A stretch of 64,000 nt of DNA, from NCBI GenBank assembly GCA_964016885.1, contig OZ024746.1, positions 10,354,001-10,418,000 of the forward strand, written 5' to 3'. This document shows, piece by piece, positions 4,330 through 49,300 of the stretch (its first letter is position 1; every line of letters starts with the position of its first letter). This DNA is from Eledone cirrhosa. Its lineage: Eukaryota. Both the position numbers and the translations under genes were made by a program. The notes below the pieces were generated by a model, which saw only the letters and a list, made by a program, of their open reading frames with translations, was not told where the DNA came from and searched no databases.

Positions 4330-5486
4330 TACGAGAGTTGACTGAAAGTTTCATAGGCTGACCAAGATACTCATGGAATGTGACCAAATGAGGTTTTTCA
4401 ATATAGTTCCCTTTGCGATCCACACACTTCTTCCATTGGTGTTGCAGTACTTGGATTCCATTGGTGACGAAGCTTTCATCCTGTGGTAAAAAGAAGTCAC
4501 CAACAGCAGATAGATATATCATCATCACTGTGATACTGGTTCCCAGCCAAGTGTTTTTCATGTTGAAGGACAGATGGGGTCAAATCAGGAGAATAAGGAG
4601 GGTGATAAACCAGTTCAAAGCCACAGTCACGCACAGCAGCCATTGAAACCAAGTACTTGTGTGCTGGATGAAACAAGACCACTTTCATCAGTTTTTCTGG
4701 GCATTTGGTCTTAGGAACTGCTTCACCAAATTGGCATGGTACTCTCCATTGATGGTGTGGCTCTTTTGAAGATAGTCAATAAATACAATGTCTTTTGCAT
4801 CCCAAAACACTGAGGCCACCACCTTCCTTGCAGATGAATCAACCTTGGCCTTCTTTGGAGAGGTAAGAAGGGGTGTTTCCACTGTATGGATTGTTTCTTT
4901 GTCTCTAGCTGAAAGTGATTAACCCAACACTCATCCTGGGCTAGGAAATGTTCAAGGAAGCCAGCTGGATCTGCCTCAAACAATGTCAAATTTTCCTGTG
5001 ATGTGAACAATCTGGTGTGCTTTTGATCAGGTGTCAGAAGATGTGGCACCCACTGAGTAGAAACCTTCATCATGCCAAGTTCATTGTGCAGAATATTTTC
5101 AACTTCTCACAGGATAGGCTGATAGCATTGACTATTTGATTTATATTTCACCTGTCGTCCATCACTTTATGGTGAATACATAAATGTTTTCCTCGGTGGT
5201 GGCAGTTGCAGGACATCCAGACATTGGGCCATCTTCAAAACTCTGTTTCCTTCCTAAATTCAGCTGCCCACCTTTTCACTTTTGATAAAGCTGGAGCATC
5301 ATACCCTAATGTAGCAACCACGCCAGCATGATATCCTTGGGGGCTAAACCCTTTTTCTGCAGGTACTTGATAACACCATGATGCCAAATTTTGTCCATTT
5401 TCAAGAGATGTTGCTACTGGTTACTTTTAAAATCTTCTTTGAACAGTCAGACATCATTTTGCTTGGAAAGAAACAATGCAGTTTTA
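4330..5486 (-). mobile_element. Mariner-like transposon, frameshifted transposase pseudogene
   Basis: Minus ORFs with WVPHLLT, QDECWV, KVVASVFWD..IVFIDYL...TINGEY and HPPYSPDLTPS. One terminus is TA|cgagagttgactgaaagtttcatagg; the other terminus was not found. Confidence 0.92.
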
Positions 5487-7387: not shown

Positions 7388-8487
7388 TTAAAAGGGTTAA
7401 TCCTTTGTTATCACACGTAGAAGATCAAGAAGCGACGTGAAACAGGTCTAGACTTTTCCGAGTGATCCCAATAAATTTCAAAATTCTTCATTTTATGTAA
7501 ACTGCTTTCATTTGAAATAATTGCTTTCAATTATTCTTCCAAAAAAAAACACACAAACAAAACGCATACACATACACACACTACCCATTAGTTTTCTGTT
7601 AAGCACTCTACCACTAATTACTATCATATTTCTAAAAAAAACTAAATAAAACAACTGCCAAAGTTCGTAAAAAGATGTAGGTTAAACTTGGAAGAGTTAA
7701 GGAGTGTTGTATAATCAGCAAATAATATGTATAAGGTTAATGGGGATTGCCAAGTGGCTGTTGATAAACTGAAGATAACAAATATAAAATAAAACTGAAT
7801 TGACTTCATTAGGGGTGGTGTTGGAAATAGAGCATGGGGGAAACTGGTTACCTTGGTGACCAGCATTTATTGTACTTCATGAAGGAAAATGTTCAGTTTG
7901 GATGTACCATATTATATTAATAGCCTTGTTTCTTTTCGATGGTGTCATGTTATGTAATATTTGCTCATTAGAGAAGTTTTTACAAGTGAAATGGATATAT
8001 ATAAATATATATATTGTTAATAGGGAGAATGGATGTTAAAATTATATATAAGGTTATGATGATGATTGCTAACAGGGAGAATAGATGTTAACTTATATAT
8101 GTCCGAAAATATTTACTTCAGTTCACTGGAAATTTAAAACTGTACTTGCTTATCACTATTAATCCTTTCATTACCATATTTCTAATGAGAGTTGCTGCCT
8201 ATGATTTTCCAATAATTATGAAAATAATTAAGAATTCGAAAGGATTTAGTGATGTAACTAACTTCCCCATTATTAAACTGGTATTTGGAACATAACTTAA
8301 TAAAATAAACAGTTTTGTATCAAAGAATCAGCTGGTTTCAGGAGGTTTGATATCAAAAGAATGAACAAATGTCAATGATTACTATACTAATTATTGTATG
8401 TAATATTTATTTCCTTACTGTTGATAAAGATGTGAAAGCTTAAATGTTGAGTGTATTGGGACCAACAAATAAGATGTCATAGAATTT

Positions 8488-9135
8488 CATCATCATCATT
8501 GTTTTTATGTCCGTTTTTCCATGCTTGCATGGGTTGGACGGATCATTCTTGGCATGGCATCTCTCCACTCGTCGCGTTCCTTTGTCACCTCCTCTCTGAG
8601 TCTGTGATTTGAGGTCAGCTGTCACAACCTCTGCCCAGGTCTTCCTTGGTCTACCTCTATCACAGTTTCTTCCACTGGCATTTCCTGGCATTTTTTCGCT
8701 CAACTTATCATTGTCCATACGCATTACATGCCCATACCAAATGCAGTCTTCTCTCCTGCACACCACCTCAGATTCCTCTCAAACCCAGTTTCTCTCTCAG
8801 TTCATCCAAGCTCTGCTTTTCTCTCACATTTACATTGCACATCCAATGTAGCATTGTTGCTTCATTTCTATCCACAGTTTACACATGTCCTCTGCAGTCA
8901 CAGCCCATGTTTCACTACCATGCAGCATCACACTTGGCACAGAGGCATCATCTTACAGTCATCTTTTTGTATGTAGTGAGAAACCTTTTGTGGTCAACAG
9001 TGGGAGTAGCTCTCTAAGCATTTTCCATCCTCTCCTTATTCTAGCTATTATGCTTTCAGAACACCCTCCTCCATTGCTAATTACGTCACCTAAATAGCAG
9101 AAGCTATCAACCACTTCTATGGGTCCTTCCTGTCA
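8488..9135 (-). mobile_element. RTE LINE 3' fragment, degraded
   Basis: Minus ORF 8440..8766 has WYGHVMRMD and RGRPRKTWAEVV. The upstream part matches the FCYLGD...GGGCSES region; (CAT)n tail at 8488. Confidence 0.88.
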
Positions 9136-11468: not shown

Positions 11469-11650
11469 GATTGGCAGTATCGGTAGAGGGTCGGACGCCA
11501 TGCTTTCCAGCATAGTTACGTCCCTTTACGATCTGAGTTCAAATCCCGCCGAGGTTGACTTTGCCTTTCATCCTTACAGGGTCGATAAAATAAAGTGCCA
11601 GTAATGCACAGGGTAATTGCTGGCCTTGTGCCTAAAGTAGAAACAATTAT
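11469..11650 (+). mobile_element. Young tRNA-derived SINE with Meta-type central domain
   Basis: A-box-like tggcagtatcggt, B-box gagttcaaatcc, core gaggttgactttgcctttcatccttacagggtcgataaaataaagtgccag; TSD attattttaaaaag (11456-11469/11646-11659). Confidence 0.88.
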
Positions 11651-12816: not shown

Positions 12817-13007
12817 ATAATTGTTTCTACTTTAGGCACAAGGCCAGCAATTACCCAGTGCATTACTGGCACTTTATTTTATCGACCCCGTAAGGATGAA
12901 AGGCAAAGTCAACCTCGGCTGGATTTGAACTCGGGTCGTAAAGGGACGTAACTATGCTGGAAAGCATGGCGTCCGACCCTCTACCAATACTGCCAATCCA
13001 CCGCCCT
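12817..13007 (-). mobile_element. Young Meta-type SINE, full length
   Basis: About 6 mismatches to the reverse complement of 11469-11650; TSD ggtatataat (12812-12821/13008-13017). Confidence 0.88.
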
Positions 13008-13281
13008 GGTATATAATGGGTTCGTTTTAGATATCATTGATAGACATGTTTCTGTCTATATATCTCATCAGTGTAGCTCATGAAGAAATAGAAAATTGAT
13101 TTATGTTCTTCAAAATACTATAATAGTTGGTATACAGGATAAAATAAAACTTTGCTTTGCATTAGGAGCATAATGGTAATAAGATTGTGGTGCTGGAATA
13201 CTGATACCATGATGACAGTGGTGTTGATTACCAAATAACCTTTAACAATTTAACTCTTTTTTTGTTCATTATTTTATATAG

Positions 13282-13342
13282 GTGTCCATTCAAAGACAAC
13301 TACAATTCTACTTGATGGGAAAAGAGTGAAACTTCAGTTATG
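13282..13342 (+). CDS. RAB40: Rab40 GTPase, first coding exon visible in the window (switch I/beta2-beta3)
   Basis: tatatag|GT GTC CAT TCA AAG ACA ACT ACA ATT CTA CTT GAT GGG AAA AGA GTG AAA CTT CAG TTA TG|gtaagt = (G)VHSKTTTILLDGKRVKLQL(W). Matches Rab40 KTTTILLDGxRVKLxLW; 61 bp with canonical AG/GT. The upstream P-loop exon was not found in the window. Confidence 0.93.
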
Positions 13343-14060
13343 GTAAGTAGTATTTCTGTTATAGTAGTTGTCACCACCACCCACCTTTTAAACATAGTTT
13401 GTCTCTTATCTATATATTTTGATTATCTAATGATTAAATAGTAGCATTGAAGATTATAGTTAAAATCATTTTGATGTGAATAAATTGTTGTTACAAACTA
13501 TCTTGAATAATTTATTCACATTTAATTGGTTATACTTGTAATTTTTTGTTTGTGTATGTGCATTTGTGTGAGCATGTGTGAGAACGATAGACAGATAAGG
13601 ATATATATATATATATATATATAGTAAAGTTTATCTGTATATTTACAGAATGTGTAGCCATACACATATTAGATATCATCAGCATCGTTGTTTAATGTCC
13701 ATCTTCTACGCTTGCATGGGTTTGGACGGGAAATTTTCCCACTTGAGGCAAGAGTGGTTGTCTTGCTAGCATAGAACTGTCTGGCGGGTTTTCTACGGCT
13801 GGATGCCCTTCCTAACACCAACCACGTTTACAGTGTGGATATGTGTATATATTTATACATGTTGGTGCAGTCTCGGTTACACATTCTGTATTTATACAGA
13901 TATAACTTTATCATACACTTTGGCTGCTAGTGCACCTCTTAATACATATGTGTGTGTGTGTGTATATGTGTGTATACACACATAAATGGATACGTTAAAC
14001 TCATACGCCCATATATATAGATGTAGATATATGCGTGTGTGTGTGTGTGTATATATATAT

Positions 14061-14246
14061 ATAGGAACGAAATAGGACCCCGACGGCTGAGCTCAAGCCG
14101 TTTCGACGGCTAATTCTTTAGCCGTTGAAACGGCTTGAGCTCAGCCGTCGGGGTCCTACTCGTTCCTATTACCCACTCTACTACCCTAAGTATTGAGTAC
14201 TTTGGTGCGTTATGGTCCACCTGGTTCCTTACCACATTTCCTTCGT
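14061..14246. mobile_element. Penelope-like element terminal remnant with inverted duplication, in (TA)n
   Basis: 109-bp near-perfect palindrome (14061-14169) carrying hammerhead stem II-GAAAC-stem III-GUC; flanked by (TA)n on both sides. Confidence 0.6.
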
Positions 14247-14316
<70 letters not shown>

Positions 14317-15504
14317 AAAATTGGCACCAACAAAGGTATCCAGCTGTAAAACATTGCCTTAAAAAGAATGCCATGATGAGAATGGAGTCTGTCATAGTTG
14401 CCTTTTAGATATGCAGATATTACAGTGTACCTGTTCTAAACTAGATACACATCTGATTTTTGTTCTAATTGCAAAACATGTGCACATGTACGGCTTAGAG
14501 GAAACATTAACAACAGATCTACTGACAGAACCAAACCCTGTTAACTATTACCTACTAAGAAAATGTCTTATTATTTACACAACAGACCATCCACCATTCC
14601 CTTCTATTATGTACTATAAAGGGAAATAAAAATTTTATAGTGCCTAATTTGAGAGGTTGGGGTGGCATACCAGTGTGTATGTGTATAAATATTTATATAC
14701 ATGCATGTATCTATATATTCCACATACAGCTTACACTGCGGGACATTTCCTTCATCAGCTGTCGACTGGAGATCACAGTGATTTTCAGGATATGCATACA
14801 TGACCATAGACTTTACAAACATATCATTTTAAGGAGATAATAGACAAAACATATGTATATATCACTAAACTTGAACAAACAGGGTGAAGAATTACATGGA
14901 GAAGAGGTGATAGAAATTCTAGAATGTAGTTCTGGCAATGAAATTAAAATTTTGCACATGTTTGAGAAATAAAAAATAAAACAACAATAATGTTTGGAAA
15001 ATATTGACAAGATCTCCACTCATGAAAATTTTAGAAACTGAAGCAAATTGATATGCCAGACTATTCATGATTACAGTGTATTAAAAAAAAAATCTAAGAA
15101 AGTTATAACTATAGTTGAAGTAATTTCTTCAGTGAGATGCAACCTCATAGGAGGCTAGCTAAACATACACAGCTGTAAGCTGAAATTACATAAGTTCTGA
15201 TGTATGCTAGATACTACCTATATTGTATATCAATCAGGACTGATGCTTCAACTGTTTTTATTATTATTATTATTTAAACATAACCTGTCTAATCCATGCA
15301 AGCATGGAAAAGCAGATGTAAAATAATGATAATGATGATGATGATTTGTAAGTGAAGTTGCAAATAATATTTCATTATCATCATCTTTGTTGTTTTTACG
15401 TCCATTTTTTTCATGTTTGCATGGGTTGGACAGGTCTTTTTCAGCACAGCATCTCTCCACTTGAAGCTTTCCTTCATCATCTCCTCTGTGAGTCTCAGCA
15501 ATTT

Positions 15505-15790
15505 GAGATGGATTGATGCATGGCTAGCTAGTTGGATGGATGGCTTGGTAGGTAGATAGATAGATGGGTTGGTTGTTAGGTAGATATGTACATAGATAGT
15601 GAGGTAGGTACATACATAGATATGGAGGTAGGTAGGTAGATAGAGGTAGATACATTAATATATAGGCAGTTAGATAGGTAGGCAAACAGATGGATAGATA
15701 ATTAGGCAGATAGATGGGTAGATAGGCAGATAGGTAGGCAAATAGATGGATACATATGTAGATGTATAGATGGATGGATTGATTGATTCT
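15505..15790. repeat. Degenerate (TAGA/TAGG/TGGA)n tetranucleotide array
   Basis: Directly visible. Many (TA)n, (TG)n, (TC)n, (CAT)n and (TAT)n microsatellites occur elsewhere, e.g. 12537-12582, 14247-14312, 34553-34595, 41169-41202. Confidence 0.9.
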
Positions 15791-18700
15791 CTCACTGTTA
15801 GTCTAAAAGATGCTTGAATGTGGGAATTTAAAAAACATTGTTGGGATACTTGAACAGATGCTAAACCAGTGCACTGAAAATTGTTTAGTTCTCCAGAAAT
15901 AGTCTATAATTCAAAGTTATCTATGGCTAGTGATGCTGGAATTTGTATTTGCTAAAAAGTGTTTCAGGAATCTCTGTCTAAGCAGATGATAAATTTACTC
16001 ATATTGTATATAATTGTGTAATTCATGTGTTAAGTGTTACAGTGAATGACAGTAATAGTACAAGACAGATTAGAATGTGTGTAATGGAATGTGACAGATA
16101 GGATTGTGTGTGAATGTTTTGGTTATGAGGGAAATGTTTATGTTAAAATTCAAATGAGCTCTTAGATTAGGAAGCCATCAGATAACTACTAGTATACTTG
16201 TGTGTGTGTAGCATTAGGCTGTTCACTCCAAGATAGCTGTATACATTCATGTATGTAAAGTTTGTATATTGAATAATGTATGTTTACAAATAAACATTTG
16301 AAAGCCTTCAGTTATAAATTTTAAAAGTGGTGGCTGTCACTATCCACCTAGTTCCTGCAGAAAGACAGGGGGGAGAGCAGCTGATGGCTATGTGTCTGTT
16401 GTGAAGGTTATATACCCATTTTCTTGTCTTCATACTGGTATGTTTTTTTATCAACCTCGAAAGGATGAAAGGCAAAGTTGACTTCACCAGGGTTTGAACT
16501 CAGAGTCGAAACGAATACTACAAAGCATTCTATCTGATGATCTAATGGCTCTACCAATTTGTCTTCGTGTATAGATATAGAGGTGATTAAAAAGTATCTG
16601 GCCAAAAAATACTCCTTTAAAAAACCTGCCCTACTCGTTCCAGCATGGAGATGTGAATATAAAATTATGCCAATGATGAATACAATGACAATAGGGAAGA
16701 TATGTGTGTGCATCATCATTATTAAAAAAGAAAAATCTTAAATAAAATTAAGATGGAAGGTTTTAATATTAAATATGAATATTTTAAAATGAGCAATTTT
16801 CCATCATAAATTTATTTTTAAAAACTTGCTACCATAATGTAAACCAGATGAAAAAAGATTTATCTGCCTTAAGTGAACTATCAGTGCAGAATATGTCCAA
16901 TAGGTTTAAGAATTTCAGTTCTAGATTTTGTCTAGAATTAGGTGTTTGTTAGTCCAAACTAAATAGTAGAATGATGGTGATGGTGGTTGTGTGTGTGTAT
17001 TTGGTGGTGGTTATGTGTGTGCATGTGTTTGATGGAGGTAATGGTGGTGGTTGTGTGTGTTTGGTGGAGATAATGGTGGTGGTTGTGTGTGTTTGGTGGA
17101 GGTAATGGTCATGGATGTATGTGTGTGGTTTAGATTAGTTAACTGACTAATGTCTCAGTTTTACATTTGTTTTTTCCATCTGTGTTGTTTTCCTAGTAAT
17201 CCTAACCACAATAATCAGTGTATTAAGTCAGTCACTGTTTATATTACATTCATTTATTCTGTCTATGTGGAAGGTCATGGCATTATAGAATGGAAGATAT
17301 TTTTTTTCAAAATTGTATTATCTATCATTGATTTAGCCTTCAGTTTGTAATTAGGTAATATAACTTGTAAACAATGCTTCTGTGATTCCTAGATAAAACA
17401 CGCACACAGCACAGCACAGCACTATCATATACACATACAAAAGAAAAGTGCAAGGTGCATTGCAAGCAAGTGATCAGACAATGCACTGAATAATTTTAAA
17501 TCACCTTCATTCAGTGAGGGCAGACAAAATTACATGGTGTAAAACATTAATGTAAAAGGGTTAATTATGAATTTATGACTCAAATGTGAAATATTCTGGA
17601 AACATTTCTGTGCAGTTGTTTTTTTCTTTTACTCTGCTCTGCTCTTTTCAATTAATTTATTCCATACAATCTATTATAACTTGATTTCAATTGATTTATC
17701 ACCTGTTTTGTTTATGTGTTTATTTATTGTATCTTCCTTTTAAATTGTTGCAATAGTTATTGTGTAGTTATATTGAACATTCTTGCTAAGCAGTGCAATT
17801 TTATGATTAAGAAAGTACTTAAGCAATACAACTCGGCCGACAAACTAGCTGAGTCGCTTAAAAATATCTTTTTTAATGTCAAATTGTTTAATCAGACTTT
17901 GGAATATTTAATCCTTGTTCAGTCACAGCTTCACTTTTTTCTGTTTTATTTCTATTAGTAAAATGGAACTTAAAATATTATTTAAGAAATAATAATAAAA
18001 ATAAACCCCAAACATACTAAGGTTAGTTCTGTCATTCTGTTTTGTATATAATGACAAAAACAAGGCCTGTCCCCTATCCCTGCTATCATCCATTCTCTTT
18101 CAGACTGTACAGAAAGGATTCTATAAAGGCATATATGAAACCATATTCAATGTTTTCATATAATGGTTTCTAATTTAGGTACAAGGCAAGCAATATAGGA
18201 GAAGGGAAAGTCAGTAAGTGTGACACCTAGTTTCATTGTATTTTAACTGATTGTTGTAAACATTTGCAGTAAATTGAAGGATCTCATGTACTACAGTGTG
18301 TTATGAGTTAAGCTGATGCTTGGAACATAACTGAAAGGTTCTTACATACATTTATGATGGAAACTTTTAATATAAGTATATTCACTTTAAAATGGAGTTT
18401 TGTATCATAGAACCTGGGGACGGTGCCAAATGGGTTGGTAGGCTAAGAAGATAACTCACCACTATCATCATCATCATCATCATCTAATGTCAGCTTTCCC
18501 TGTTAGCAAGAGTTGGATGGGTTGGTAGTCAGAGCAGAGATACTGACCCTATGGGTGGGCCAGGAGCATGCATCTCACATATGTTCCTGTGTAGTTGGAT
18601 CAAACCCCAAACCCTGTAATTGCAAAATAAATCTCTAAATTACATAATCATGTAAGAGGAAAACCAGTATTTTTATATTATAAAAGATAAAAGGAAAAAA

Positions 18701-18849
18701 CTTTTTTTTTTTTATCAACTTTCCGTTTTATGTTTTATATATGAATTTCTTGCTTTAGCACACACAAAGTTATATATATCATAAACAGGTTCCTAGTTTC
18801 ATTGATAAAGTTATACAAATTTTAACTGGTTTAATGTTTATTTTCATAG

Positions 18850-18910
18850 GGATACATCAGGACAAGGACGATTCTGTACCATATTTCGCTCTTACTCACG
18901 TGGTGCTCAG
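18850..18910 (+). CDS. RAB40: Rab40 exon (G3/switch II)
   Basis: catag|G GAT ACA TCA GGA CAA GGA CGA TTC TGT ACC ATA TTT CGC TCT TAC TCA CGT GGT GCT CAG|gtaaat = (W)[20 protein letters not shown], the diagnostic Rab40 switch II. Phase joins the previous exon (TG+G = Trp). Confidence 0.97.
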
Positions 18911-19365
18911 GTAAATATTCTTTTTGTTTGCCAAATTGCTTTAACTGTTATGTAAAAAAAAAAAAATGCATATTTTTTTATTTAGGAAAATTTTTCCTTT
19001 CAATGAAAATTTCAAACTATTTTCTGAATGTTAAGAAATAGAAAAGGCTGAGAATGAATTAGTTGAAAGTCTAACCAAACAAAACCGACAGAGAGACCAA
19101 TTATAAAGATTACATACCAGACTCCCATCATACTCTCACTCCCTTCTATTATTTCCTCCATCACTGTTTCTTACACCCCTCCTCAGTCTGTCTCTTCTAT
19201 TATACTCTTGCACCCTAACCCACTCACACTGGCCTTTCTGTGAATGCTCTCTTATTCTCTCTTTTCATTACATTGCTTTGAATGAACCAAGGCAAACAAA
19301 CCAATGTTGGTGCCATGATGGAATGCATTCAATACACACTGTAAATTGTTTGGCATTAGGAAAGG

Positions 19366-19506
19366 CATTTAGCCATGGAACATATGAACAAGATGTGATT
19401 CTCTGATCCATCTAGCCTTGGAACATATGAACAAGATGTGATTCTCTGATCCATTTAGCCTTGGAACATATGAACAAGATGTGATTCTCTGACCCATTTA
19501 GCCTTG
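19366..19506. repeat. 43-bp tandem repeat, ~3.3 copies
   Basis: Unit catttagccttggaacatatgaacaagatgtgattctctgatc, near-identical copies with no spacers. Confidence 0.95.
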
Positions 19507-20868
19507 AACTGACTGTGATGTTCCTGACCAATATGAAAGTAAATGTAAAATGACAGTGGTGGTGGTAGCAGCGGCTGTGATAGGAGATTCGAAGAAAGGA
19601 AATGAAATATATAAAGAAAATCAGAGAGATAGAAGCTAAGATAAAAGCCTGAATCACTTGTTTAGTTAAGCAGTCAGACATCTTGCCACTCAAACATTTT
19701 ACCTGGCAACTAATTACAAAGACAATGTAGTGAAGAGATGAAATAACGAAAACTGAAGTCTAATTATCAAGTAACATACTAAAGAAAGTCATTGTGATGG
19801 CAGTTGGATTATAGAAAAACATAGAACCACTGTCTACATAGCTAGAGAGGGAGGGGGTTGAAGCAAGAGAGTTTCTTGCCAAAGAACAAATAACTCTGTT
19901 TTGCAATTGTTGATACAGAGAAAGTTGAGCACTGAGAAAGCTAGTTTAACCCTTTAGCATTTAAACTGGCCAGAATTCTGTTCAGACTGGCTGTAACTAG
20001 CCGATCATACTGATGTTAAGGTATTATTAAGGTATTATTCTCAAAATAAATAACATCAAAATCTCGTAGATTTGATATAATGAGAGATAATTAAGTAAGA
20101 TAAAGTCTTTACCACAAAAATACAATAGTACATATAGAGTAATGTAAATGTTAAAAGGTTAAGTAATGAAAACTATTTGTGCTGTGTTGGGAAGGAGAGA
20201 CTGAAGCAGTAATATAGATTTGGGATTAACTATATGAAAGCCAAGGATCTGTCCTTAGCTTTCTTCATTTCCTACACCTTGGAGCTGTTATGTTATGAAG
20301 GATTCATTGTCATGGCAACCCTAATTGAGCTGACCTATGATCAGAAGCATTCCAGCCATGGGTATCCTGTCTTTTTTATATCTAGGACTACATTGTTCAT
20401 TGTGTCTTTCATTTCTTTAAGACTGGAGGGTTTGATCTGGGGCAGTGGACTTGAGTTGGTAGAGCGTCAGATAGGATACCTTGTGGTATTTGTTCTATTG
20501 CTGTGGCTTACTGGGATGGTAGATGTAAACAGTTACCTAGTTTAACACCACCACCCACCCCTTGGTTGTCTTTAACAGAATCCACCTTTTTTTTTTTTTT
20601 TTTTACAAGCATTCAGGTCAGATCTCTTTTCTCCCTTTCACCTGTCATGGGCTAATCATCATCATCATCTTTTTATGCCTGCTTTTCCACGCTTGCATGG
20701 GTTGGACAAGTCCTTCTCAGACATCATCCCTCCACTCGTCATGTGATATAAAAAAAAACAAAGGAAAACTCTGGTTGATTGAATGACTGGTTGTTAACTT
20801 TTTAATATCTTTGCTGATAAATAATTATATTGAGAATTTGAATGATTTTTGCCCATTTGTTTTCACAG

Positions 20869-20946
20869 GGAATACTGCTGGTGTATGACATTACAAATAG
20901 GTGGTCATTTGATGGTATTAACCGTTGGTTAAGAGAAGTGGATGAA
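20869..20946 (+). CDS. RAB40: Rab40 exon
   Basis: cacag|[26 protein letters not shown]|gtacgt; 78 bp, phase 0/0. Confidence 0.97.
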
Positions 20947-21221
20947 GTACGTTGACCTCTTTTTATTATATTTTTCCTTTACTTTTTTTTCAAATGTATA
21001 ATCAACATTAAGATGTACTAGTATAGCAAGTGGCATTACCTAAATTTCTAAGTTAAAATTAAATGGTTGTGTTGTGAAAATGTCATGATAGTCATTTAAA
21101 AACCCACATACTGATATATTTAATCACTTCAGTTTAATTTGTGATAATTTTGTAATAGAGTTACACCACTGATTTTCCAGCAACCAATTGTTGATACTGC
21201 ACCTCTTATTAACTGGATATA

Positions 21222-22780
21222 AATCTAGCTAAAAGTAAGCCACTCTATTTGGCATTTGTCGACCTTGAGAAAGCCTTTGACAGAGTTCCACGTGCTGTAA
21301 TCTGGTGGGCTCTTAGAAAACTAGGAGTAGATGAATGGCTTGTGAAAGCGGTACAAGCCATGTATAGGGGAGCAGTCAGCAAAGTTAGGATTAGCAATGA
21401 GTATAGCGAGGAATTTAGCGTACAGGTTGGGGTCCACCAGGGCTCTGTTCTTAGCCCTCTCCTGTTCATCATAGTCCTGCAGGCAATAACGGAGGAGTTT
21501 AAGACCGGATGCCCATGGGAACTCCTGTATGCTGATGACCTCGCACTCATAGCTGAATCTATGATAGAACTAGAGAATAAATTCCAAACCTGGAAGCAGG
21601 GACTAGAAAGAAAGGGTCTCAAAGTCAACATGACAAAGACTAAGGTCCTTGTAAGTAGACGAGAAAACAGAACCCAGATCCCCTCAGGGAAATGGCCTTG
21701 CTCAGTATGTAGGAAAGGTGTAGGTAGGAACTCCATTCTCTGCCCCAAATGCAAACAATGGGTACACAAGAGATGTAGCGGGATCTCAGGAAGCTTAATT
21801 AAGAATGTAGGATTCACATGCAGCAGCTGTGCTGAGACAGCAAACAGCCACAGGAAACAAGTACCACCAATCTCTGGGAGGGCCCTGTAGAAACAGTAGA
21901 CAGCTTCTGCTACCTAGGTGACCGAATTAGCAACGGAGGTGGGTGTTCAGAAAGTGCAATAACTAGGGTAAGAACGGGATGGAAGAAGTTTAGGGAACTA
22001 CTACCACTGCTAGCTGCAAAAGGCTTCTCCCTCAGAATGAAAGGCAGACTGTATGATGCGTGTATCCGAACAGCGATGTTGCATGGTAGCGAGACCTGGG
22101 CGCTGAAGGTGGAAGACTTACGTAGATTAGAGAGAAATGAAGCCTGCATGCTCCGATGGATGTGTAACAATAATATACGTGAACGACGAAGCATAAATGA
22201 ATTGAGAGAGAGACTGAGCATAAGAGGAATCAAATGCTGTGTGCAGGAGAGGCGGTTGCGCTGGTATGGACATGTGATGCGTATGAAGGATGACAGTTGC
22301 ATAAAAAGGTGCAGAGCACTAGAAGTTGATGGAAACCGCGGAGTGGGGAGACCCAAGATGACCTGGGATGAGGTGATAAAAGCCGACCTTACCCAATTAC
22401 ACCTCTCAAAGACAATGACACACGACCGTGACTTCTGGCGTCACACAGTAATACAGAGTACCCGACCTCCCATGGGTACAAGCTGAAGCATATAGACAAT
22501 ATGCCCCCCCCCCCCCCCACCGCAAGGTGGTCGTGGAGGTGCCACGGCAAAAAAGCACCCAGCCCACACTGTAAAGTGGACGTGTAGGCGCCACGAAAAA
22601 GCACCCAGCACTCACTGTAAATGAGGTTGGTGTTAGGAAGGGCATCCAGCTGTAGAAATCAAGCCAAATCAGTTCCTGTATGAGCAAGGCATGGTCAACC
22701 GACCAGACACTGCCCACAACAGGACAACCCGTCTAACCCATGCTAGCGTGGAAGAACGGACGTAAAACGGTGAGGATGAT
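21222..22780 (+). mobile_element. RTE-clade LINE, 5'-truncated (RT, PHD-like insert, C-terminus, 3' UTR, (GAT)n-like tail)
   Basis: ORFs 21249..21890 (AFVDLEKAFDRVPR, GVHQGSVLSPLLF, LLYADDL) and 22037..22486 (HGSETW, RRLRWYGHVMRM, RGVGRPKMTW), joined by a frameshift. 3' UTR has aggaagggcatccagc and ends aacccatgctagcgtggaa...gatgat. Confidence 0.95.
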
Positions 22781-22781
22781 G

Positions 22782-23626
22782 AGGGTGCGGACGATATTTG
22801 TTCGCAAGATTACTGTCTAGGAAAAAATAACACAGTAGTTTTATTTTTTAAGATATATTTATCAAACTTGGGTCAGTTTGTCTTCATGACTTGTTCTTTC
22901 GATCTCACTCGATAAACCTGCCATTGGCTTTGATGACGGCCACAAGGCGGCCTCGGAACCGGCTACAGGCCTTCGTCACTGTCCCCCGACTTAGGCTCCT
23001 AAATGCATTTGTGATCCTGGCCTTCAGATTGTCTTTCAAATTGCAGCTAGATCTGTTGGTGTCTCGTTCCACTGCGCCCCACACAAAGAAGTCGAGGGGG
23101 TTGCAGTCAGGCGAGCTGGGAGGCCAGATGTCAGGTGAAGTGTGGTCGACGAAGTTCTCTGACAGCCAGGCTTGGGTCTTTCGGCTGTATGGCAGGGCGC
23201 TGAGTCTTGCTGCCACACGTACGGCCTACCTGCTGCTACCTGGTCGATCCAGGGCTTTACTACCTCGCTCAGAACGCGGATGTAGCCATCAGTGTTCAGC
23301 TTGAGGCCCTCAGGGAAGAAGTGAGGTGGCATGACGACACCTAAGACCAATGTTGTTGCTGGAAACTTTGTCTGCATGACTCTGGGCACGTCTTTGGATG
23401 AGACACCATTCTCCTGCTGACGCTGAGAAAGTCTGAAATTTCCTTATTTGCTCTCCCGGCGCGGATTCCAAGAAGAACTCCGTGTCTCTTCCACAAATTT
23501 TCTGAAAATAAATAATGGAGGAAATATAGTCACTGTTTTTATGAAGACAAGAGTGACAACGGAAGTAAAAAGAAATTGCATAAAATTAGCAGTTGAAAAT
23601 TGCGAACAAATATCGTCCTCACTCTG
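22782..23626 (-). mobile_element. Tc1/mariner DD37D (maT-type) transposon, internally deleted
   Basis: ~26-bp TIRs: agggtgcggacgatatttgttcgcaa (22782-22807) and ttgcgaacaaatatcgtcctcactctg (23600-23626) followed by TA. ORFs with YVWQQDSAPCH and WPPSSPDCNPLDF; 37 residues between the 2nd and 3rd Asp after correcting one frameshift. Confidence 0.9.
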
Positions 23627-24249
23627 TATATATATAGGTATTTCTTCACATTACAGACAATATAGCTCCAGCTAGGGGGTTACAATAACTAAAATAAGTT
23701 ATTGGGATAAAAAGAGTTGGGTGGAGAAAGAGAGACAGGTAAACAAACACGAATGGTGAGGCAACGTAAAGAGAGAAAAAAATGAAAAAATCAAGTCAGT
23801 AATTCATTTCGAATATAAGAATGGGCGAATTTTGACGAGAAGGTAAAGGCACATCTTAGCCGTACGGATGTGAGCAAGGAAAAGGATCGCGTACGGTGTG
23901 GGATGATGTAGGAAGTGAGAGAGAGGGTGAGTAGCAGAGAGTGAGTGAGTGAAATAAGAGGGAGAAGGAGAGAGAAAGAGGATAGCAGTAAGGGAAGAGA
24001 AAAAAGACAGGTCACAGCGAAGGGGAAAGCATATATGAATAAAAAAAATGGCGAGCTCTGTTGCAATTAAGTATAATAAATAAAGAATTAGAAATAGAAG
24101 TTATATATATATATATATGTGTGTGTGTGTATAACTGAAACCAATAAAATAATAAGAAGAAAGAAAAAAGAATATATTTTCATGGTGCATAAACTTCCTT
24201 TTATTTTATTCATTTGTTATTTATGGTATATATATATATATATAAATAT

Positions 24250-24902
24250 ACCTGAATGGCAAAGCATAAATGAACTAAGTGAGAAATTGGGAATAAGAGG
24301 GATCAGATGCTGTTTACTCGAGAGAAGACTACGTTGGTATGGTCACGTGATGCGCATGAAAGACGACAGCTGTATAAAAAAGTGCAGGATGATCAAAATA
24401 GATGGAAGCTATGGAGTAGGGAGACCCAGAAAAACCTGGGATGATTTGATAAATTCCGACCTTACACACTTACACCTCTCTAAGACCATGTCACTGGACC
24501 GAGATCTTTGGCGCTACGCAATAATACAGAAGACCCGCCTTGCCTAAGTACAAAGCGAAACCTACAGTCAGTAGGCACCTCCTAACCAAAAATACACCCC
24601 ATCTACACCACCCCTTTCTCTGTAAAGTTATGTTGGTACCACAACATCCAGTCCTAAATAAATGAGGTCGTGTAAGTGTCAACAAAAAAACACACAGTCC
24701 ACGCTGTAATGTGGCCATGTAGGTAACACGGTAAAAACCTCCCAGTCCACACTGTAAACGTGGTTGGTGTTAGGAAGGGCATCCAGGCATAGTAAACCCG
24801 CCAGACAGTCCTATACGAGCAACAATTCTCGTCTAAACCCATGCTAGCGTGGAAGATAGACGTTAAATAATGATGATAATGATAATGATGATGATGATGA
24901 TA
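24250..24902 (+). mobile_element. RTE LINE 3' fragment (same family as 21222-22780)
   Basis: SINELSEKLGIRGIRCCLLERRLRWYGHVMRMKDDSCIKKC...GRPRKTWDD, then the same 3' UTR and a (GAT/AAT)n tail. Confidence 0.9.
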
Positions 24903-26801
24903 TTTAGACAAACTAAGATACTTTCAGTAAAAAGTCTGTTTGACATTCACACAAGTCAGTTTAATCGTGTACCCTCAGCATAGTAATAATGTACTTATGA
25001 AAGCAATCTTATCATTATTGATAAATTAATAAGGTTTCTGTATTACACATTTTCCTTTAAAAGGTGAGAGCAAAATACAATTTCCTGTTGAATCATAACA
25101 AAAATCAATTATACTCTCTTTTTCGTTTTCTCTCTCTATCTTTGTCTCACTGTATGTGTGTATGTATTTATATTCCATATAAAGCGTGAAACTAATAAAA
25201 CTTTTGTATTTCTATTTTGTCGTTTCCTTGAACTATATGTATGTCTATGTGTGTGTGTATATGCAAAAGAGAAACAGAAATAACAAAGCAAACGACTCAG
25301 TACAATGAAGAAATATATTATTAGTTTTATGCTTGATATAGTAAGAAAAGAATCTTAACGTTTTGGATGCTAGTCTTTTATCAGAAAATAGAAAGAGAAA
25401 TTAAAGAAGAAATAGAAAGATAGAGGAGACTGTGCAGTGGTAGCAGAAGAGAATAGTGGAGGAAAAGTGGTAGAGAGTCATGGTATTTTGGTATAAAGCA
25501 AAAAGATATCAGAAAATCAAATGATCCAAAAAGATATCCAAGTGGAAATTCAGGTCGAGTCCAGGAAAAGCATTTGAACATTTGAAGTATTAACCATTTA
25601 GAACCAGAATAATACTAATGTATTGGGTGGCTTCCTTCTGCACAACCCAAATGGCAGAGGATCACATTCTTTCAGGAATATCCCTATAAGATCTGCAGCA
25701 GTTTCTGTTAAACCTCACTGGCACACAGTTCAGGGAGCACATTTTTTGCTGCTTCACAAATAATACTGTAGTCATCCACAATATAATGGTGACTTCTACA
25801 ATCTTATCTGGTAGAAATAACAACATATGGTCTTAGTGATTATATCATTCAGCACCTACCACAGTCATGCCAGCTCTCCAAGACAATAACATCAAACTGA
25901 AGCAATTTCAGTCAATAGTACATACTATATACATTAAATATGTATATAGACTGAAATGTCATCTCTAAAGACAGGAAAGTTTTCATGCCCAAAGAATACA
26001 TGTCTAAAATTATCTAAACAAACGAGTGCAAAAGAAATGAGGCAGCTTAAAATGTTGATTGACATTGAAAATCTGAAGAAAGTGAATAACTTTGTACAGA
26101 AGCACACAAGGTAAATGAAATACTCAAATGAGCAATTCAATAATATTTTCACCACCCTTCTGGTATACAAGTAAATAGTTGAACTAAATAGTTCTACAAC
26201 ATTGTAATATGGCATTGAGAAAAGGCAACCAGGAAATATATTAATAACTACCCTACAAAAACTGTCTGAACATAGCAGCAAGCCCTGATAACTTCCTAAC
26301 AATTCTTTAATAATAATAAAATAAAGAGAGAGAGCAAAAAAAAAAAAACATGCAAAAGGGCCTTGGAATGTGAATTACTTTTCCAAAGATTTCTTGAAAA
26401 TAGTAATCCCCCCCCCCCCTCCTCAAGGTAGGGAATAGAACAAATGCAAAATTACAGGTATCTTTGACTTCACATTAGCAAGGTGAGGGAACTAATTATG
26501 TTCCTAGAAAAAATAACTTAACTGAAGCCTTGTGATTGAAATTGGTTAGATGGGAATTGTATGGAAGCCCATCAGATGGATTGTACCTGTAATTCAAGGT
26601 TCCAGTCTTTTCACATATTATATGACACTGATTTGGACTGGGAATTACATTAAGTGTACACATACCTGTGGAATACTCAGCTATGTATACGTTAATTTAA
26701 TGAGTTGGTTGTTCAGTTGGCCAAACAACTGAATGCTCATCATTGAAACCAACGAAGAATCCATAATTTTACTAAGCCACTGAAAAGTCTTGATTATATT
26801 A

Positions 26802-26942
26802 CATTACTGGTACTTTATTTTATCGACCCCCGTAAGGATGAAAGGCAGAGGTTAACTTTGCCTTTCATCCTTACGGGGTCGATAAAATAAAGTACCAGTA
26901 ATGTACTGGGTAATAGCTGGCCTTGTGCCAAAAGTAGAAACA
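26802..26942 (+). mobile_element. 5'-truncated Meta-type SINE with a fold-back (inverted-duplicated) 5' end
   Basis: Palindrome centred on gttaac (26851-26856) with ~50-bp arms, then the SINE tail; TSD attatatta (26793-26801/26943-26951). Confidence 0.88.
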
Positions 26943-27101
26943 ATTATATTAAAACTGAATTTAAACACTAGCAGTCTAGTTGTTAGAAATTTAGCCATAA
27001 AAACATTAAGGTAGTGATATACTAGTCATAAATTAGTAAGTTAAAACTCTATTATTGACATATATATATATATATATATTGCCAGACATTTGTCTAGTTT
27101 A

Positions 27102-27370
27102 CATTTTTTCATGCTCAGAGTTGCTGAAGCATGGAACAAACTACCTGCATCAGTTATTAGCTGTCGAGACACTGCATCCTTTAAAACCTCCATGCTTCCT
27201 GAGATTCGCCAACACCACCTAATATTCCCCCTCCATACACACGCACACATGTATATCATGACTCATACACTATTCACTCCCTGTCATTTGTATATTATTC
27301 TATGTACTATACATGCACCTTTGATGAGTTGTAGTGCACCTGAGCACTACACAATTTCATTATTATTATT
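27102..27370 (+). mobile_element. CR1 LINE extreme 3' end, 5'-truncated
   Basis: HFFMLRVAEAWNKLPASVISC..TASFK (CR1 FFxxRVxxxWNxLP motif), then 3' UTR and (TAT)n tail. Absent from the paralogous segment at 2744-2998. Confidence 0.9.
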
Positions 27371-27586
27371 TTTATATCTAGTAAAAAAAATAGCAACTGT
27401 TACTTTGCTATTAAGTGATTAATGCTAGATAGATCACCTAGCTACAAAATATTTGCTTCAATAACCTAGTTTCTTGAACAACTGCCCATCATTGAAACCA
27501 ATAGAAGATCCGTCATCAAAACCAACAGAGGATCCAACATCAATGATAACTAGTTTGTAAGATATATCATCTTTTTATCTTTTCAG

Positions 27587-27809
27587 CATGCACCCGGTGT
27601 ACCTAAAATTCTAATTGGAAACCGTCTACATTTAGCTTATAAACGCCAAGTTAGTGAAATTACTGCTGAATCATATGCTCTGAAGAACGATTTGGCCTTC
27701 TTTGAAGTTAGTCCTTTATGTGACTTTAATGTTCAAGAGTCATTAGCTGAACTTTCACGACTTGCGCTAAAAAGAAATGGAATGAGCAGAACCTGGGGTC
27801 CAAATAAAG
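27587..27809 (+). CDS. RAB40: Rab40 exon (G4/G5 region)
   Basis: tttcag|HAPGVPKILIGNRLHLAYKRQVSEITAESYALKNDLAFFEVSPLCDFNVQESLAELSRLALKRNGMSRTWGPNK+G|gtatgt; 223 bp; Rab40-type GNRLHL and EVSPL boxes. Confidence 0.97.
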
Positions 27810-28389
27810 GTATGTACTATTCTTCTTCTGTTTGAAATATTGATTTAACTCTTTCATTACCAAACTGTCTGAAACTGGCCCTGGTTCTACAATACTAAGC
27901 TATTCATTGGAACCCTTTCAATGGCATGTTTCTTGTGAAAGATAATGTTTTTGATTTTTAAAAAACTTTGAAAATAATGAAAATGGAAAGATTTAGTAAT
28001 TTAACTAATTTTCTCATTATTAATTTGGTGTTTGGAACATAATTTAAAGGTTCTTACATTAAATTATGATGGGAAGTTTTTAGATAGATAAAATTCTTTA
28101 AAACAAATAGCTTTGTATTGTAGAACCAGCAGCAGTTCCAGGTGGTTTGGTATCATGATACATGAAATTATTCTTATCTATTTTGAGAAATTTATGGTAT
28201 TATGAATAGAAGAACATTTATACTTATTTACTCATAGCATCACAGTTTAAAATATTCCTGCAAATACAGGTATTTACTTAAAATGTTAAGTGAGGACATA
28301 ATAGAATTTGCCTCAAAATGAATTGAAACATTTTTAATGAGAATTAACACCGGGAAGGGTATCTGGCTTCAAAATGTTTTCTTTTTCCT

Positions 28390-28750
28390 CTCCTACTCCT
28401 CCCTGGGAGGATTGTGGGGGCAGAGTCCACAAACACACCTTCAAGAGGGTCCTGTCAGAAGCAACTGTCTTCAGTTGATCCAGCTGGCTCCCTAAGCAGG
28501 ACCAGCTGAGCTCATAGATTTAATCCAACCATCTTACTTGGGAACTACCCCTGTGCCTCCTGTCGGTTGGTTTTCGTCCAACAATTCTTTCCTGGGTCAT
28601 TCTAACCACGCGCCTGTAGTACCAGATCTGTTAGTTCTCAATTCAGAGAAGTAGTGGCTCTACCTGGAGCGACTCTCATTTTCAAGCTATGCACTCCCTT
28701 GAGTAACGTTACTCCAAAGACCCTTAGGAGGAGCACCATTTTGGCTGTTT
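28390..28750 (-). mobile_element. RTE-type (Rex3/Expander-like) LINE 3' fragment; related copies at ~56470-57010 and ~63265-63545
   Basis: Three copies share cctgtcagaagcaactgtc...atccagctg...agctcatggat...ctacccctgtgtctcctgtcggttgg. The minus strand reads like KPTDRRxRG...RWLD...ELSW...QLKTVASDR. Confidence 0.6.
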
Positions 28751-28882
28751 GATGATGTTGCTGTTTATAATGTAACTTTTTTTTTCTTCTATATTTGTAT
28801 TTTGTTTATTACTATTGTTGTTGTTGTTGATTTATTTATTTCTCAAAAGGTTTTCTTTTGTTTTGTTTCTTTTTTTTTTCAG

Positions 28883-29124
28883 TTTTGAGTCTCCAAGAAC
28901 TTGCTTGTCGGACAATAGTGTCTTGTACCACAATTTATGGTATTGATCAGTTGCCGTTACCACCTCGTCTGAAATCTCATTTGAAATCCTATGCGATGAC
29001 TAACAAAACCCGCAGCAGCACACGCATGCACAGCTTTATACACAGGGACAAGCTTAAAAAGTTGAAATATCTTAACCCCACTGAATCACCCCCCAACTGT
29101 CGTAAAAGCTGCTGTATCAGTTAG
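28883..29124 (+). CDS. RAB40: Rab40 last coding exon: SOCS box and CAAX prenylation motif
   Basis: Polypyrimidine tract + cag|(V)LSLQELACRTIVSCTTIYGIDQLPLPPRLKSHLKSY...SPPNCRKSCCIS*. Contains BC-box SLQELAC, Cul5-box LPLP and C-terminal CCIS; lies within ORF 28858..29124. Confidence 0.97.
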
Positions 29125-46372: not shown

Positions 46373-49300
46373 TAACAAGAGGAAGGCAACAACAACAACA
46401 GTGTCATTAACAACAACAACTCTACCATTAACAAGAGGAAGCCAACCCCAGCATCAGTGACTCACCACCAGCCACTAGGTCCTATGACAAACTGCTCAGT
46501 TGCTCGCATGTGTGCGTGCTGAACTCTGGGTCTTTCTGCTGGGAACAACCCCGTGTTTTCTCCCCCCCCCTTTTTTTGTGTACATCCATCCATCCATTCA
46601 CTCATTCATTTACTGCCATTCTACCTTCCTGTGTCTCCCCCTCCATGCAGCCCCTTTTCGTTCTCGTTTTCTAACACCTCCATATATATAGGTGACCTAT
46701 GTTGCCCTCTTACCAGCACTCTCCCTTCCACCCACACACGCCAGCCACCCACCCCTGATGCCGCTCGGTGCCTCAGTCCCTGGCCCCAAGCCCCATCCCC
46801 CACCCCTCCAAATCGACACCTGCAGCACTTGCGGCACCACTAACAAATGGAAGAGGGGCCGGAACTGTTTGGGGTGCGGCTGCTTCCACCACCTCACCTG
46901 TGTTAGCTTGACTCGTCGAGCTTCCAATGCCCTCGCAGCGTGGAGGTGCAGGAGCTGCCTCTTCCCCACATCTTCCCAGCCACGGCCGTCTGGCACACCA
47001 CCAGGTGAGACAGTGAGCTTGCCTGACGGCCGAGTCTCGCTGGTCAACATCGCTCGGCTCAGGCGGCTCCGGAAGATCCCACTCAGGATCCCGAGAGTGG
47101 CACGGGTGCCGGTAGCCGATGCCCTCGCTTCCTCGATTGAGAGCGCCCTGGACTCCAATTGAGCCAGTGACTGGGAGTGGCTGTTCTATTTTGCCCCACT
47201 CGCCCTCGGCCTCCCCAGCTCTGGCACTGACCGGGGCGGCTGGTCAACAGCAGCCTTCGTCAAGGCCAATGTCTCATCATTTGGGCGAGCGCCCATTCCA
47301 AGTGTGCCCAGGGACACCACACACCCACCCTCAAGTACCCCCTATCCTCCACCCCCGAGGCCAGTGCCAAGCGTTTGCGTGACCAGGTAAACGCAAAGCT
47401 TATCATGGGTGATGTCTCGGCCGCAGTCAGAGTTGTTGCCTCAGAGGACACTGTCCTCCAACCCACCGAGGAATCCTGGCTGCTCTGTGGCTCAAACACC
47501 CTGAGCCACCCACTGATCTCAGACCCATATCCCCACCTAACCCCCACTTGCTCCTTGTGGCTACTGATGCAGATATCATGTCCGCCATCAGGTCCTTCCC
47601 AGCTAGCAGCTGCGGAGGTGTTGATGGTCTCCGACCAGGCCACCTCAAGGAGTTGACATCCCACCTCTCCGCTGAGGCCAGGCACCGCCTTCTGAGTGCA
47701 ATTCTGGCGCTCACCAATAGGCTCATTCATGGTGCCCTCGACCCTTACGCCTGAGGCCTCTTTTTTTCGGCCAGCCTCAGGAAGTCTTCACCGCTCTCAG
47801 GAAGAAAGAGAGTGACATACGCCCCATTGCTGTGGGCAATGTCTTCCAGAGGCTGGCTGCCAAGGTGGTCTGCAAGTCCATCACACACGAACTGGGTGAG
47901 GAGTTTAGTCCGGTGCAACTGGGTGTCGGCGTGTCCAGTGGCTGTGAGGGAGTCGCTCATGCAATCAGGCAGTTCTTCAGCAGCTGCCCATCGGTACCGG
48001 CATCCAGGGACTCCAGGCACCTCATTGTCAAGCTTGACATGAGGAATGCCTTTAACTCTTTACGCCGCGATCATCTGCTCGAGGCCTGCCTCAGCCGAGC
48101 CCCCTCTGCCTACCCGCTGGCCTACCTGTCATATGGAGCCTCGAGCATGCTCCTAGCTGCTGATACGGCCATACCCTCGGCTACTGGGGTCCAACAGGGC
48201 GACCCTTTGGGACCCTTCCTGTTCGCCCTTGGTATTGATCACATCGCCCGGAGTATCATGACCCCTCTCAACGTTTGGTATCTGGATGATGCTACGTTGG
48301 GCAGGCCCGTACGAACGGTCTGCCAAGACCTTCAATCGGTGATTCCTGCCCTGGCGGGAATCGGCCTCCAGGTCAACTCGGCCAAGTTGGAGATGGTGAA
48401 CATCAGCCTCGATACTGCGAGCTTTGCAGCCTCCGTCTTGGACGTGCGGTCCATTCTCCGCCGGGTTCAGGTGACCCGACCCCCAAAGAGGATGTCCTCA
48501 TCCTCGGGTCACCGATCCACCCGCCCACCATCAGGTCCAGGCTTCAACAGCTCCAGACTCTCACGAGCCGATTGGGCGTGATTGACGGCCACCCAGCTCT
48601 CTTTCTGCTGAGGAACTGCTTCGCCATGCCAAAGCTCCTCTATAAACTCCGCAGTGCTCCGTGCTACACCCAGACATCTCTCCTCGCTGACCTCGATACT
48701 TGTATCCAAGCAGCAGCCGAGGCGATATGCAACATCAAGTTTGAGGACATAGGGTAGCAATAGGCCACTTTACCGGTCAGGTATGGTGGCCTTGGCCTCC
48801 GGTCCCCGATCTCACTAGCTTTGCCGGCATATCTTTCGTCGGTAACCTCGTGCCGCGTCCTCGTCAGCAGGGTTCTTCAAAACACAACAGAACCCTCTGT
48901 GTTCAGAGAACGTGAGGCCGCCTGTGAGATGTGGGACTTAGCCCAGTAGATGTCCCTCCTCCTTCTCCCCTTGTTGACGTCAAGTCCCCCCAAAGCACTT
49001 GGGATGCCATCCAGTGCAGCCTGGCCTCGGACAGGCTCACGCGCAAGCTCAACCAGCACCGCCTTGCTTGTTTTCGTGCTCTCATGCCCTGCCCTCCTTC
49101 TCCACTGGCACGCAGCTAGACAACCATAGCCTGCGAATCGGCGTTTCCCTGAGGCTCGGCCTCTGGATCTGCTAGCCACACCAATGTCACTGCGGTACCA
49201 CCGTGGACTCTTTCGGCCTCCACCCGCTTTCCTGTCGCCACAGTGCCAGCCGCATTCCACGCCATGCTGCCCTCAACGAGCTCATTAAGCATGGCTTGGA

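Follow-up and report, generated by a model that had tools for sequence, protein, structure and literature searches.

A palindromic element insertion in an intron of a Ras/SOCS-box gene

The window, by which we mean the whole 64,000-nt stretch of Eledone cirrhosa DNA that was analysed, carries on its forward strand a gene for a Ras-family GTPase with a C-terminal SOCS box, a pair of domains which we take to indicate a Rab40-like gene; its first exon was not found. One of its introns holds a palindrome between two (TA)n runs (Table 1), which is a stub-sized head-to-head insertion of a very common Hydra-type Penelope-like element (PLE). We number the element from the first G after GUC (position 0, window 14150), directly 3′ of the predicted hammerhead scissile bond, which in an intact ribozyme would fall at 14149/14150.

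Table 1. Coordinates of the palindromic insertion, its parts and its host gene in the window
Feature	Position	Strand	Description or basis
Ras-family GTPase with C-terminal SOCS box	13280-29121	+	exons: ending 13342, 18850-18910, ~20870, ~27585, ~28880
Host intron	13343-18849	+	flanking exons read ..TTTILLDGKRVKLQLW and DTSGQGRF..
Left (TA)n target run	14050-14063	.	sequence
Tail-less arm	14061-14117	-	inverted copy of element -36 to +19: hammerhead 3′ half and 19 nt
Tailed arm	14118-14249	+	element -32 to +99
Remainder of hammerhead stem II 3′ strand	14118-14126	+	in full-length relatives the true 5′ partner and core lie ~50 nt upstream; both missing here
GAAA, 5-bp stem III with palindromic loop, GUC	14127-14149	+	sequence
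Stem I 3′ strand	14150-14154	+	fold of relatives
80-nt tail	14170-14249	+	spans the two fixed element ends, +19 to +99
Right (TA)n target run	14247-14312	.	sequence

The core arms of the hairpin (14073-14113 and 14118-14158) are 41 nt each and 98% complementary, with a 4-nt spacer (TTCT) between them, and together with an outer 11-bp extension the hairpin covers 14061-14169 and contains a single G-T pair and a single 2x1 internal loop. Its folding gave -102.8 kcal/mol (z -19.8), none of 200 shuffled sequences being equally stable, and no second long non-simple hairpin of this PLE family was found inside the window. The two arms are joined flush, head to head, at 14117/14118. The tail-less arm departs from its subfamily by one substitution and one inserted base, its outer TAT being common to the TA run, and the tailed arm is the same as the subfamily copy L032 apart from a C>T at 14126, a CpG site at hammerhead position 11.1. 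The choice between C and T at position 11.1 was also considered as a marker of the arms, and was dismissed as CpG decay enriched by the query. Stem III pairs 14130-14134 with 14144-14148, and its loop is the palindrome TGAGCTCA.

A previous sequence-only reading of this DNA had described an intronic 109-bp palindrome with a TTCT centre at 14061-14169, and its arms, G-T pair and internal loop were all recovered as it described them, inside the intron of the gene given above. GAAAC (14127-14131), stem III with the self-complementary loop, GTC (14147-14149) and GGGGTCC were likewise found where it had placed them; no CUGANGA core was found in the sequence 5′ of the substrate half, and both strands do carry the 3′ (substrate) half of a type I hammerhead ribozyme, by way of the inverted arm. 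On the other hand, what had been taken for a stem II closed by a UUCU loop is simply the inversion joint, at which the inverted arm supplies the complement of element -36 to -24, and the element does not end at 14169, since the right arm continues with the 80-nt tail.

The core positions 3-9 and the 5′ strands of stems I and II are missing from the window copy, with the inverted arm in their place. Judged by the parts that it retains, this copy cannot self-cleave, and within the host pre-mRNA it would be trapped in a perfect hairpin. A search against Rfam gave no hammerhead match at the hairpin locus.

Size of the family and its assignment to Hydra-type PLEs

A search of the animal's own genome gave 954 candidates, 40 of which were scored. 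Among the best 30 loci, which were inspected, most showed the head-to-head structure with varied joints, and two contained RT and GIY-YIG-type coding pieces. Exact matches in the genome amounted to 29,507 for a 20-mer of the tail, 7,599 for a 32-mer of the window subfamily, 5,839 for the core motif and 310 for the junction of the tail into the ORF. The genome thus holds roughly 30,000 tailed ends of this Hydra-type PLE, and stubs outnumber ORF-continuing copies by about 100 to 1.

A protein search of the genome revealed many intact frames and tandem arrays, which bears out the expectation of the sequence-only reading that relatives would adjoin an RT/GIY-YIG frame. Full-length tandem units, examined in 12 regions, are 3,528-3,543 bp long; a stop-to-stop frame of 784 codons begins shortly after the motif, and the outer ends of the element in these regions are either +19 or +99. 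Arrays of 2-4 units plus inverted copies were found at the loci L066-L077. The frame has RWR at codon 104, DKT at 184, YRDD at 415, CNCPDRSIC at 639, VIY..YIG at 658-675, CNLC at 737 and CKH at 765; CCHH is absent, and a single cysteine stands between VIY and YIG. Searches of Pfam and PDB with the 784-codon frame returned no match, and a homologue, P0118, matched RVT_1 below the cut-off. Judging by these motifs and by the likeness to published Hydra proteins, the element is an EN+ PLE, with RT followed by a GIY-YIG EN in one ORF.

In full-length copies the tail runs on into the ORF region, at which the first in-frame ATG is at +190. In L072 an upstream ATG lies in the tail at +62 (noted at position 5859, and the +190 ATG at 5987), and the +190 ATG gives 717 aa; as the frame of L072 is open from -11, translation of the leader could begin at a codon other than ATG.

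The copies also show the arrangements known from EN+ PLEs, namely the tandem/pLTR arrangement, an inverted 5′-truncated copy, a one-sided tail and a hammerhead in the pLTR. They share with the Hydra clade of C-terminal EN+ PLEs (Craig et al. 2021, PMC8557442) the order RT then GIY-YIG-type EN, the RWR (RWK-type), DKT and Cx motifs, the pLTR hammerhead and the (TA)n target, which was present at the window flanks and at nearly all sister loci shown. Following the protein features that section 11 of that paper gives for the clade, the RWK-type motif, DKT, the CxCx5C linker, CxxC and CxH were all found, without CCHH. Hydra-1_Obim, in its supplement, shares many motifs by eye, yet it is a separate family with a different hammerhead, and the Hydra unit is given there as <3 kb, compared to 3.5 kb here, the likeness to the clade being one of motifs. 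The CUGANGA core, a trait described for the clade and not exclusive to it, was absent from the first 100 of the 5,839 core matches. The non-LTR retrozymes, defined in the available text of bioRxiv 10.64898/2026.07.22.740005 as tandem units placed head to tail, all of which have a complete type I hammerhead, are a different arrangement from the head-to-head arms without a core which we observed.

The hammerhead of full-length relatives

The half which is missing from the window copy was found in full-length copies, where a stem I strand, UUGAGAA, a bulged stem II strand and a loop II of 33-35 nt precede the stem II 3′ strand by about 50 nt. Intact relatives with a hammerhead core had been foreseen by the sequence-only reading, and such a core exists; it is of the U3-A8 type and lies ~50 nt further 5′, and is not the CTGANGA abutting gacggctaa that had been expected. 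Among the first 100 of the 5,839 core matches, 75 were U3-A8, 23 C3.A8, 2 U3.G8 and none C3-G8, and G8 occurred in 59 matches genome-wide, of which 11 had C3, that is the canonical C3-G8. In the same first 100 matches position 7 was G in 68, T in 14, A in 13 and C in 5, and position 8 was A in 98; a free position 7 against a fixed A8 is the pattern that would be expected of a selected core.

The three-way junction is the minimum-energy fold in the youngest subfamily, at a stability not better than that of shuffles (z 0.70). In C3.A8 copies an alternative hairpin beats the three-way junction and the 3-8 pair is lacking; the subfamily closest to the window copy has both C3.A8 and U3-A8 long arms. 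In an alignment of 12 subfamily sequences 92.9% of cells were paired under the hammerhead fold, and no compensatory changes were found among these 12, which are 93% identical and too alike to lend covariation support to the fold. By their sequence, the full-length relatives have the parts of a type I hammerhead, with a core containing the 3-8 pair, GAAA, NUH and three stems. An older, diverged group of subfamilies (L108, L109, L111, L113, L114, L118-L122 and L125) has a U3.G8 core (UUGAAGA), and differs in its loop II and in the sequence after the cut, with the +19 end unchanged.

The six Hydra hammerheads in File S2 of PMC8557442 have CUGANGA and a loop II of 4-9 nt, unlike the UUGANAA or C3.A8 core and the long loop II found here. 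The PLE hammerheads, including the U3-A8 variant of Schistosoma Cercyon, in the available text of Cervera and de la Pena (2014, PMC4209133) resemble ours in being of type I with a 5-bp stem I, a long bulged stem II, a palindromic loop III, G10.1-C11.1 and a covariant U3-A8 core. The same source reports dual PLE hammerhead motifs on opposite strands, 100-700 bp apart. Unlike the hammerheads given there, those of the present family have a 5-bp stem III able to fold as a monomer, a very long loop II that holds the predicted start site discussed below, and a large C3.A8 subset.

Fixed outer ends and a wall at the inner end

Tailed arms were sampled in genome order, with the first 90 of the 7,599 matches of the 32-mer and 90 of the first 100 of the 29,507 matches of the tail 20-mer (10 of this second 100 were left out), which after removal of 5 duplicates gave 175 loci in the first part of contigs C1-C2. 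An adjacent inverted partner was present in 133 of these 175 distinct tailed arms, and it ended at +14 to +22 in 126 cases and at +99 in 2. The 5′ ends of the tailed arms fell at -47 to -34 in 101 loci, at -57 to -48 in 6, beyond -57 in 19 and inside -34 in 49. Under strict parsing, the ends of both arms met a wall at -45 and were most frequent at -44 and -41/-40, the inner ends being ragged across 12 nt. Many joints were flush, showed microhomology or carried templated inserts.

The arms of a pair are frequently of unequal length. The tail-less arm reached further 5′ than the tailed arm by at least 10 nt in 19 clear cases out of 126, after 6 of 25 such rows had been discarded for alignment overlap or homopolymer effects, and in the window it does so by 4 nt (-36 versus -32). 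Long insertions showed a kilobase asymmetry of the arms, for example -3222 versus -578 in L165, and unequal arms were also seen in read contigs. Arms of different length might also be mimicked by asymmetric deletion at a later time. The read contigs of one DNA run have loose ends at -45, +19 and +99, and in them the depth was ~25-fold higher over -25 to +108 than upstream; the sample may be the source of the assembly itself.

A(-41) sits in TTAGT, or in TCAGT in one subfamily, and in the youngest subfamily TATTTAAA lies 29 nt upstream of it; by consensus motifs we take the former to be initiator-like and the latter to be TATA-like. No cap-G footprint was found beside these ends, as the extra base was C in 9, G in 4 and A in 3 of the arms ending at -41, and C in 10 and T in 1 of those ending at -40. 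The commonest strict end, -44, is one base before A(-45) and had an extra T in 17 of 17 gapped cases. Long A/T homopolymer inserts were observed at joints ending at -44 or -41 in L029, L081, L143 and L253, which suggests reiterative synthesis at a template end. A splice acceptor TTTAG in loop II that would bring in an exon with CUGANGA was also considered and was dismissed, since the joints share no upstream sequence.

Template jumps, and breaks at the predicted cut

We searched the genome for arms that break at a given position, demanding three mismatches just 5′ of it, and used +6 and -4 as control positions. Breaks exactly at 0 numbered 232, compared to 34 at +6 and 23 at -4, and upon inspection ~27 of 30, 26 of 30 and 9 of 12, respectively, were real. 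Among the 30 inspected breaks at 0, both arms ended at 0 in ~10, the end was ambiguous by microhomology in 4 and no partner was present in ~7. The A/T spacers between arms ending at 0 were considered as untemplated A, and are unusable for this, as the search pattern forced A/T there. In a downstream-anchored sample of 90 loci only 2-3 ended at 0 and the peak was not obvious, which is consistent with ~3% at this position versus ~0.5% at each neighbouring one. Pausing of the RT at the base of stem III or at a GGGG/CCCC clamp is a possible source of this peak.

Of the 310 ORF-continuing copies, 70 were surveyed for jumps. Continuation past +398 was seen in 47, 17 were short insertions (18 loci) with a sense-to-sense jump, and 5 had other short forms. 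The jumps departed from -45 to -38 in 11 of the 17 insertions, from -1/0 in 6 and from nowhere else, and they landed at +160 to +316, and once at +917. Arms that had jumped from 0 did not in any case extend beyond -2. One jump joint was crossed twice in L340, and in L380 (~1290-1620) the 160>0 joint was crossed twice by the +19 arm and once by the +99 arm; the presence of the same joint in both arms points to one template. L380 and L340/L341, with their repeated joints, are candidates for insertions made on circular RNA templates. Read-through of a lariat was considered as the source of the jumps and dismissed, since their fixed side is not a GT start and the jumps from 0 look alike. The excess of breaks at 0, together with the 6 of 17 jumps that leave from there, bears indirectly on the predicted self-cleavage of the relatives after C17.

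How the stubs may have formed

The PLE identity, the fixed and paired outer ends that have TAT in common with the target, the two preferred inner ends and the jumps from those two only can be read from the genomic copies directly. It is probable, at roughly 0.7, that they reflect two antisense cDNAs made on one RNA, with the inner ends corresponding to RNA 5′ ends. The element's enzyme would nick both strands of the (TA)n target, and the two cDNAs would be primed at the two fixed sites, +19 and +99, likely on one RNA. Both would then run off the 5′ end of the RNA, which would be a transcription start in loop II (major) or the ribozyme cut (minor). Position -41 (and -45) is a predicted Pol II start, and the ends at 0 would be hammerhead cleavage products of longer transcripts. 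The jumps may arise where the RT re-enters a short RNA at its far end, or circles on a small RNA circle. Within this mechanism taken as a whole, the window copy would belong to the major class, with its joint trimmed to -36/-32 by end-joining; the catalytic core would be missing from it because its template RNA likely never contained the core. The one RNA run, a metatranscriptome, yielded a single 200-nt contig, outside the element region.

Perhaps two primers were used in the same way, and the ends at -45 to -34 and at 0 are instead places at which the RT stopped on a long RNA, because of a fold in the RNA, a protein attached to it or the branch point of a lariat (A(-45), which fits yUnAy). 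We consider this unlikely, even though the end at -44 with its extra T abuts A(-45), position 0 adjoins the base of stem III, a cap signature is absent, and spliceosomal introns have been published in the 5′ regions of PLEs (PMC4209133 and PMC8557442, in their available text). None of the 47 copies that continue past +398 stops at -45 to -34, so this site is no general block to the RT, and tandem arrays cross it repeatedly. Besides, the jumps leave solely from the two places and repeat an identical joint, and the joints examined revealed no spliced copies that share an upstream exon. The same 0 of 47 cuts both ways, since a full-length mRNA from -41 should give some ORF-spanning copies starting there and none does. 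Thus, a simple model in which an mRNA from -41 makes all copies is wrong, because the long copies come from RNAs continuous across -45, and tandem arrays, read-through or a start further upstream must supply the RNAs for them.

The numerical excess of stubs over ORF-continuing copies, and the recurrence of a few joints (L129/L131), would also suit a non-autonomous family that spreads as ready-made palindromes. Long palindromes are unstable, and the stubs might otherwise be long inverted insertions which lost their centre. Either origin seems improbable to us. The joints vary from copy to copy, and every subfamily has stubs, some of which match the youngest full-length units at 98-100% identity; deletion would not halt at a wall at -45, nor would it account for the jumps into ORF sequence that start at -41 and 0.

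The sequence-only reading had proposed fold-back priming at stem II, in which a single cDNA snaps back at or near stem II and copies itself. Self-priming, possibly on an antisense template, is also how inverted PLE copies are read in the available text of PMC8557442 and PMC3846280, the latter on the basis of palindromes at inverted junctions of rotifer Penelope. A few joints do lie on natural hairpins or palindromes of the element, for example near -20/-7 in L082 and L128, and both arms often end near one place. Nevertheless, we find this origin very improbable for the present family. A cDNA begun at +19 has no template for the tail from +20 to +99, and a cDNA begun at +99 cannot yield a partner longer than itself, so we favour two primers, as described in vitro for another PLE (PMC11167929), rather than a fold-back. 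A longer tail-less arm was seen in the window, in the 19 of 126 short pairs, in L165 and in read contigs, all of which contradict a fold-back unless every one is the result of later deletion. Moreover, the joints cluster in loop II, at -45 to -34, and not in stem II, and many are flush or have microhomology or templated inserts. Finally, an assembly artefact can practically be dismissed. No listed contig of four DNA runs bridges the window joint, which carries no weight either way, and read contigs of these runs do contain opposite-strand, head-to-head joints of this PLE family. The two arms of the window differ from each other at three positions, and 133 of the 175 sister loci share the architecture with different joints.

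Relation to described systems and significance

In the twin priming of L1, one RNA is likewise copied into two cDNAs that start from two target nicks, which leads to an inversion; its second primer is internal and varies in position, with no overlap between the segments. In the priming by two cDNAs that we propose for the present family, the two starts are fixed and each cDNA covers the same leader, which results in an inverted duplication.

Among PLEs, insertions with an inverted 5′-truncated copy (PMC8557442, PMC3846280) resemble ours in their head-to-head arms, one-sided tail, microhomology at the joint and TATA- and Inr-like motifs in the pLTR. The tails in the available text of these papers are 30-40 nt, unlike the 80 nt found here, where most insertions are bare two-arm stubs with a sharp 5′ wall. 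The Poseidon element PAc of Anolis (Frangieh et al. 2024, PMC11167929) is alike in having two fixed internal RT start sites which define a tail downstream of the hammerhead, in its AT-rich target, and in that both strands are cut and extended in vitro; it differs in its C3-G8 core and in an ORF that starts in stem II. According to the available text of that paper, no RNA reads of PAc ended where its ribozyme cuts, and the reaction in vitro did not require cleavage, unlike the genomic breaks and jumps here, which peak at the predicted cut. The word 'inverted' occurs in that text only for a blocking nucleotide.

The inverted truncated copy, the one-sided tail, the targeting of (TA)n, PLE hammerheads and the U3-A8 core are already published. 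Our literature search did not find stub-sized PLE palindromes or families dominated by stubs, a wall of 5′ ends within loop II, genomic breaks that peak at the cut or jumps from it, among sources that did not extend to most subscription papers, such as the D. virilis promoter work, which may bear on these points. Neither 'palindrom' nor 'hairpin' occurs in the available text of the Octopus vulgaris repeat paper (PMC13282606).

As a locus, the window insertion is a dead stub like thousands of others. Its family bears on how the tandem and inverted ends and the tail of PLEs form, a point stated as open in PMC8557442, and on hammerhead cleavage in vivo, for which evidence is described as absent in PMC4209133. 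In a broader reading, the stubs would be a fossil record of PLE retrotransposition, in which a dimeric enzyme starts two cDNAs on the same RNA and copies up to the 5′ end of that RNA, a promoter in loop II gives a main transcript with the substrate half only, longer transcripts self-cleave in the germline via U3-A8, and on RNAs of either kind the RT jumps from one end to the other or travels in circles; we would give even odds on this reading in full. If true, it would be the first genomic evidence of PLE hammerhead cleavage in vivo and a direct account of the inverted repeat plus tail. The breakpoint map names the exact nucleotides. The genome is also seeded with ~10 perfect hairpins per megabase, many of them intronic, which are a putative source of dsRNA.

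Other repeats in the window

A second fold-back palindrome, at 26806-26899, is built from a dispersed SINE-like repeat, and its right end precedes a TA-poor flank. Other copies of this repeat were found at 12864-12932 and 16433-16501, and as an inverted pair at 11469-11650 / 12817-12998. A GC-rich, frameshifted non-LTR retrotransposon with an RVT_1 match occupies 46692-49757 (+), and by eye its C-terminal CCHC and RPD motif are of the restriction-like endonuclease type. RTE-like RT fragments are present at 21213-22486 (+), 8440-8778 (-) and 24098-24547 (+), the first of which matches RVT_1 and has a PHD finger 3′ of the RT. Broken pieces of mariner/Tc1-type transposases lie at 4691-5106 (-), with a match to Transposase_1, and, by eye, at 22852-23443.
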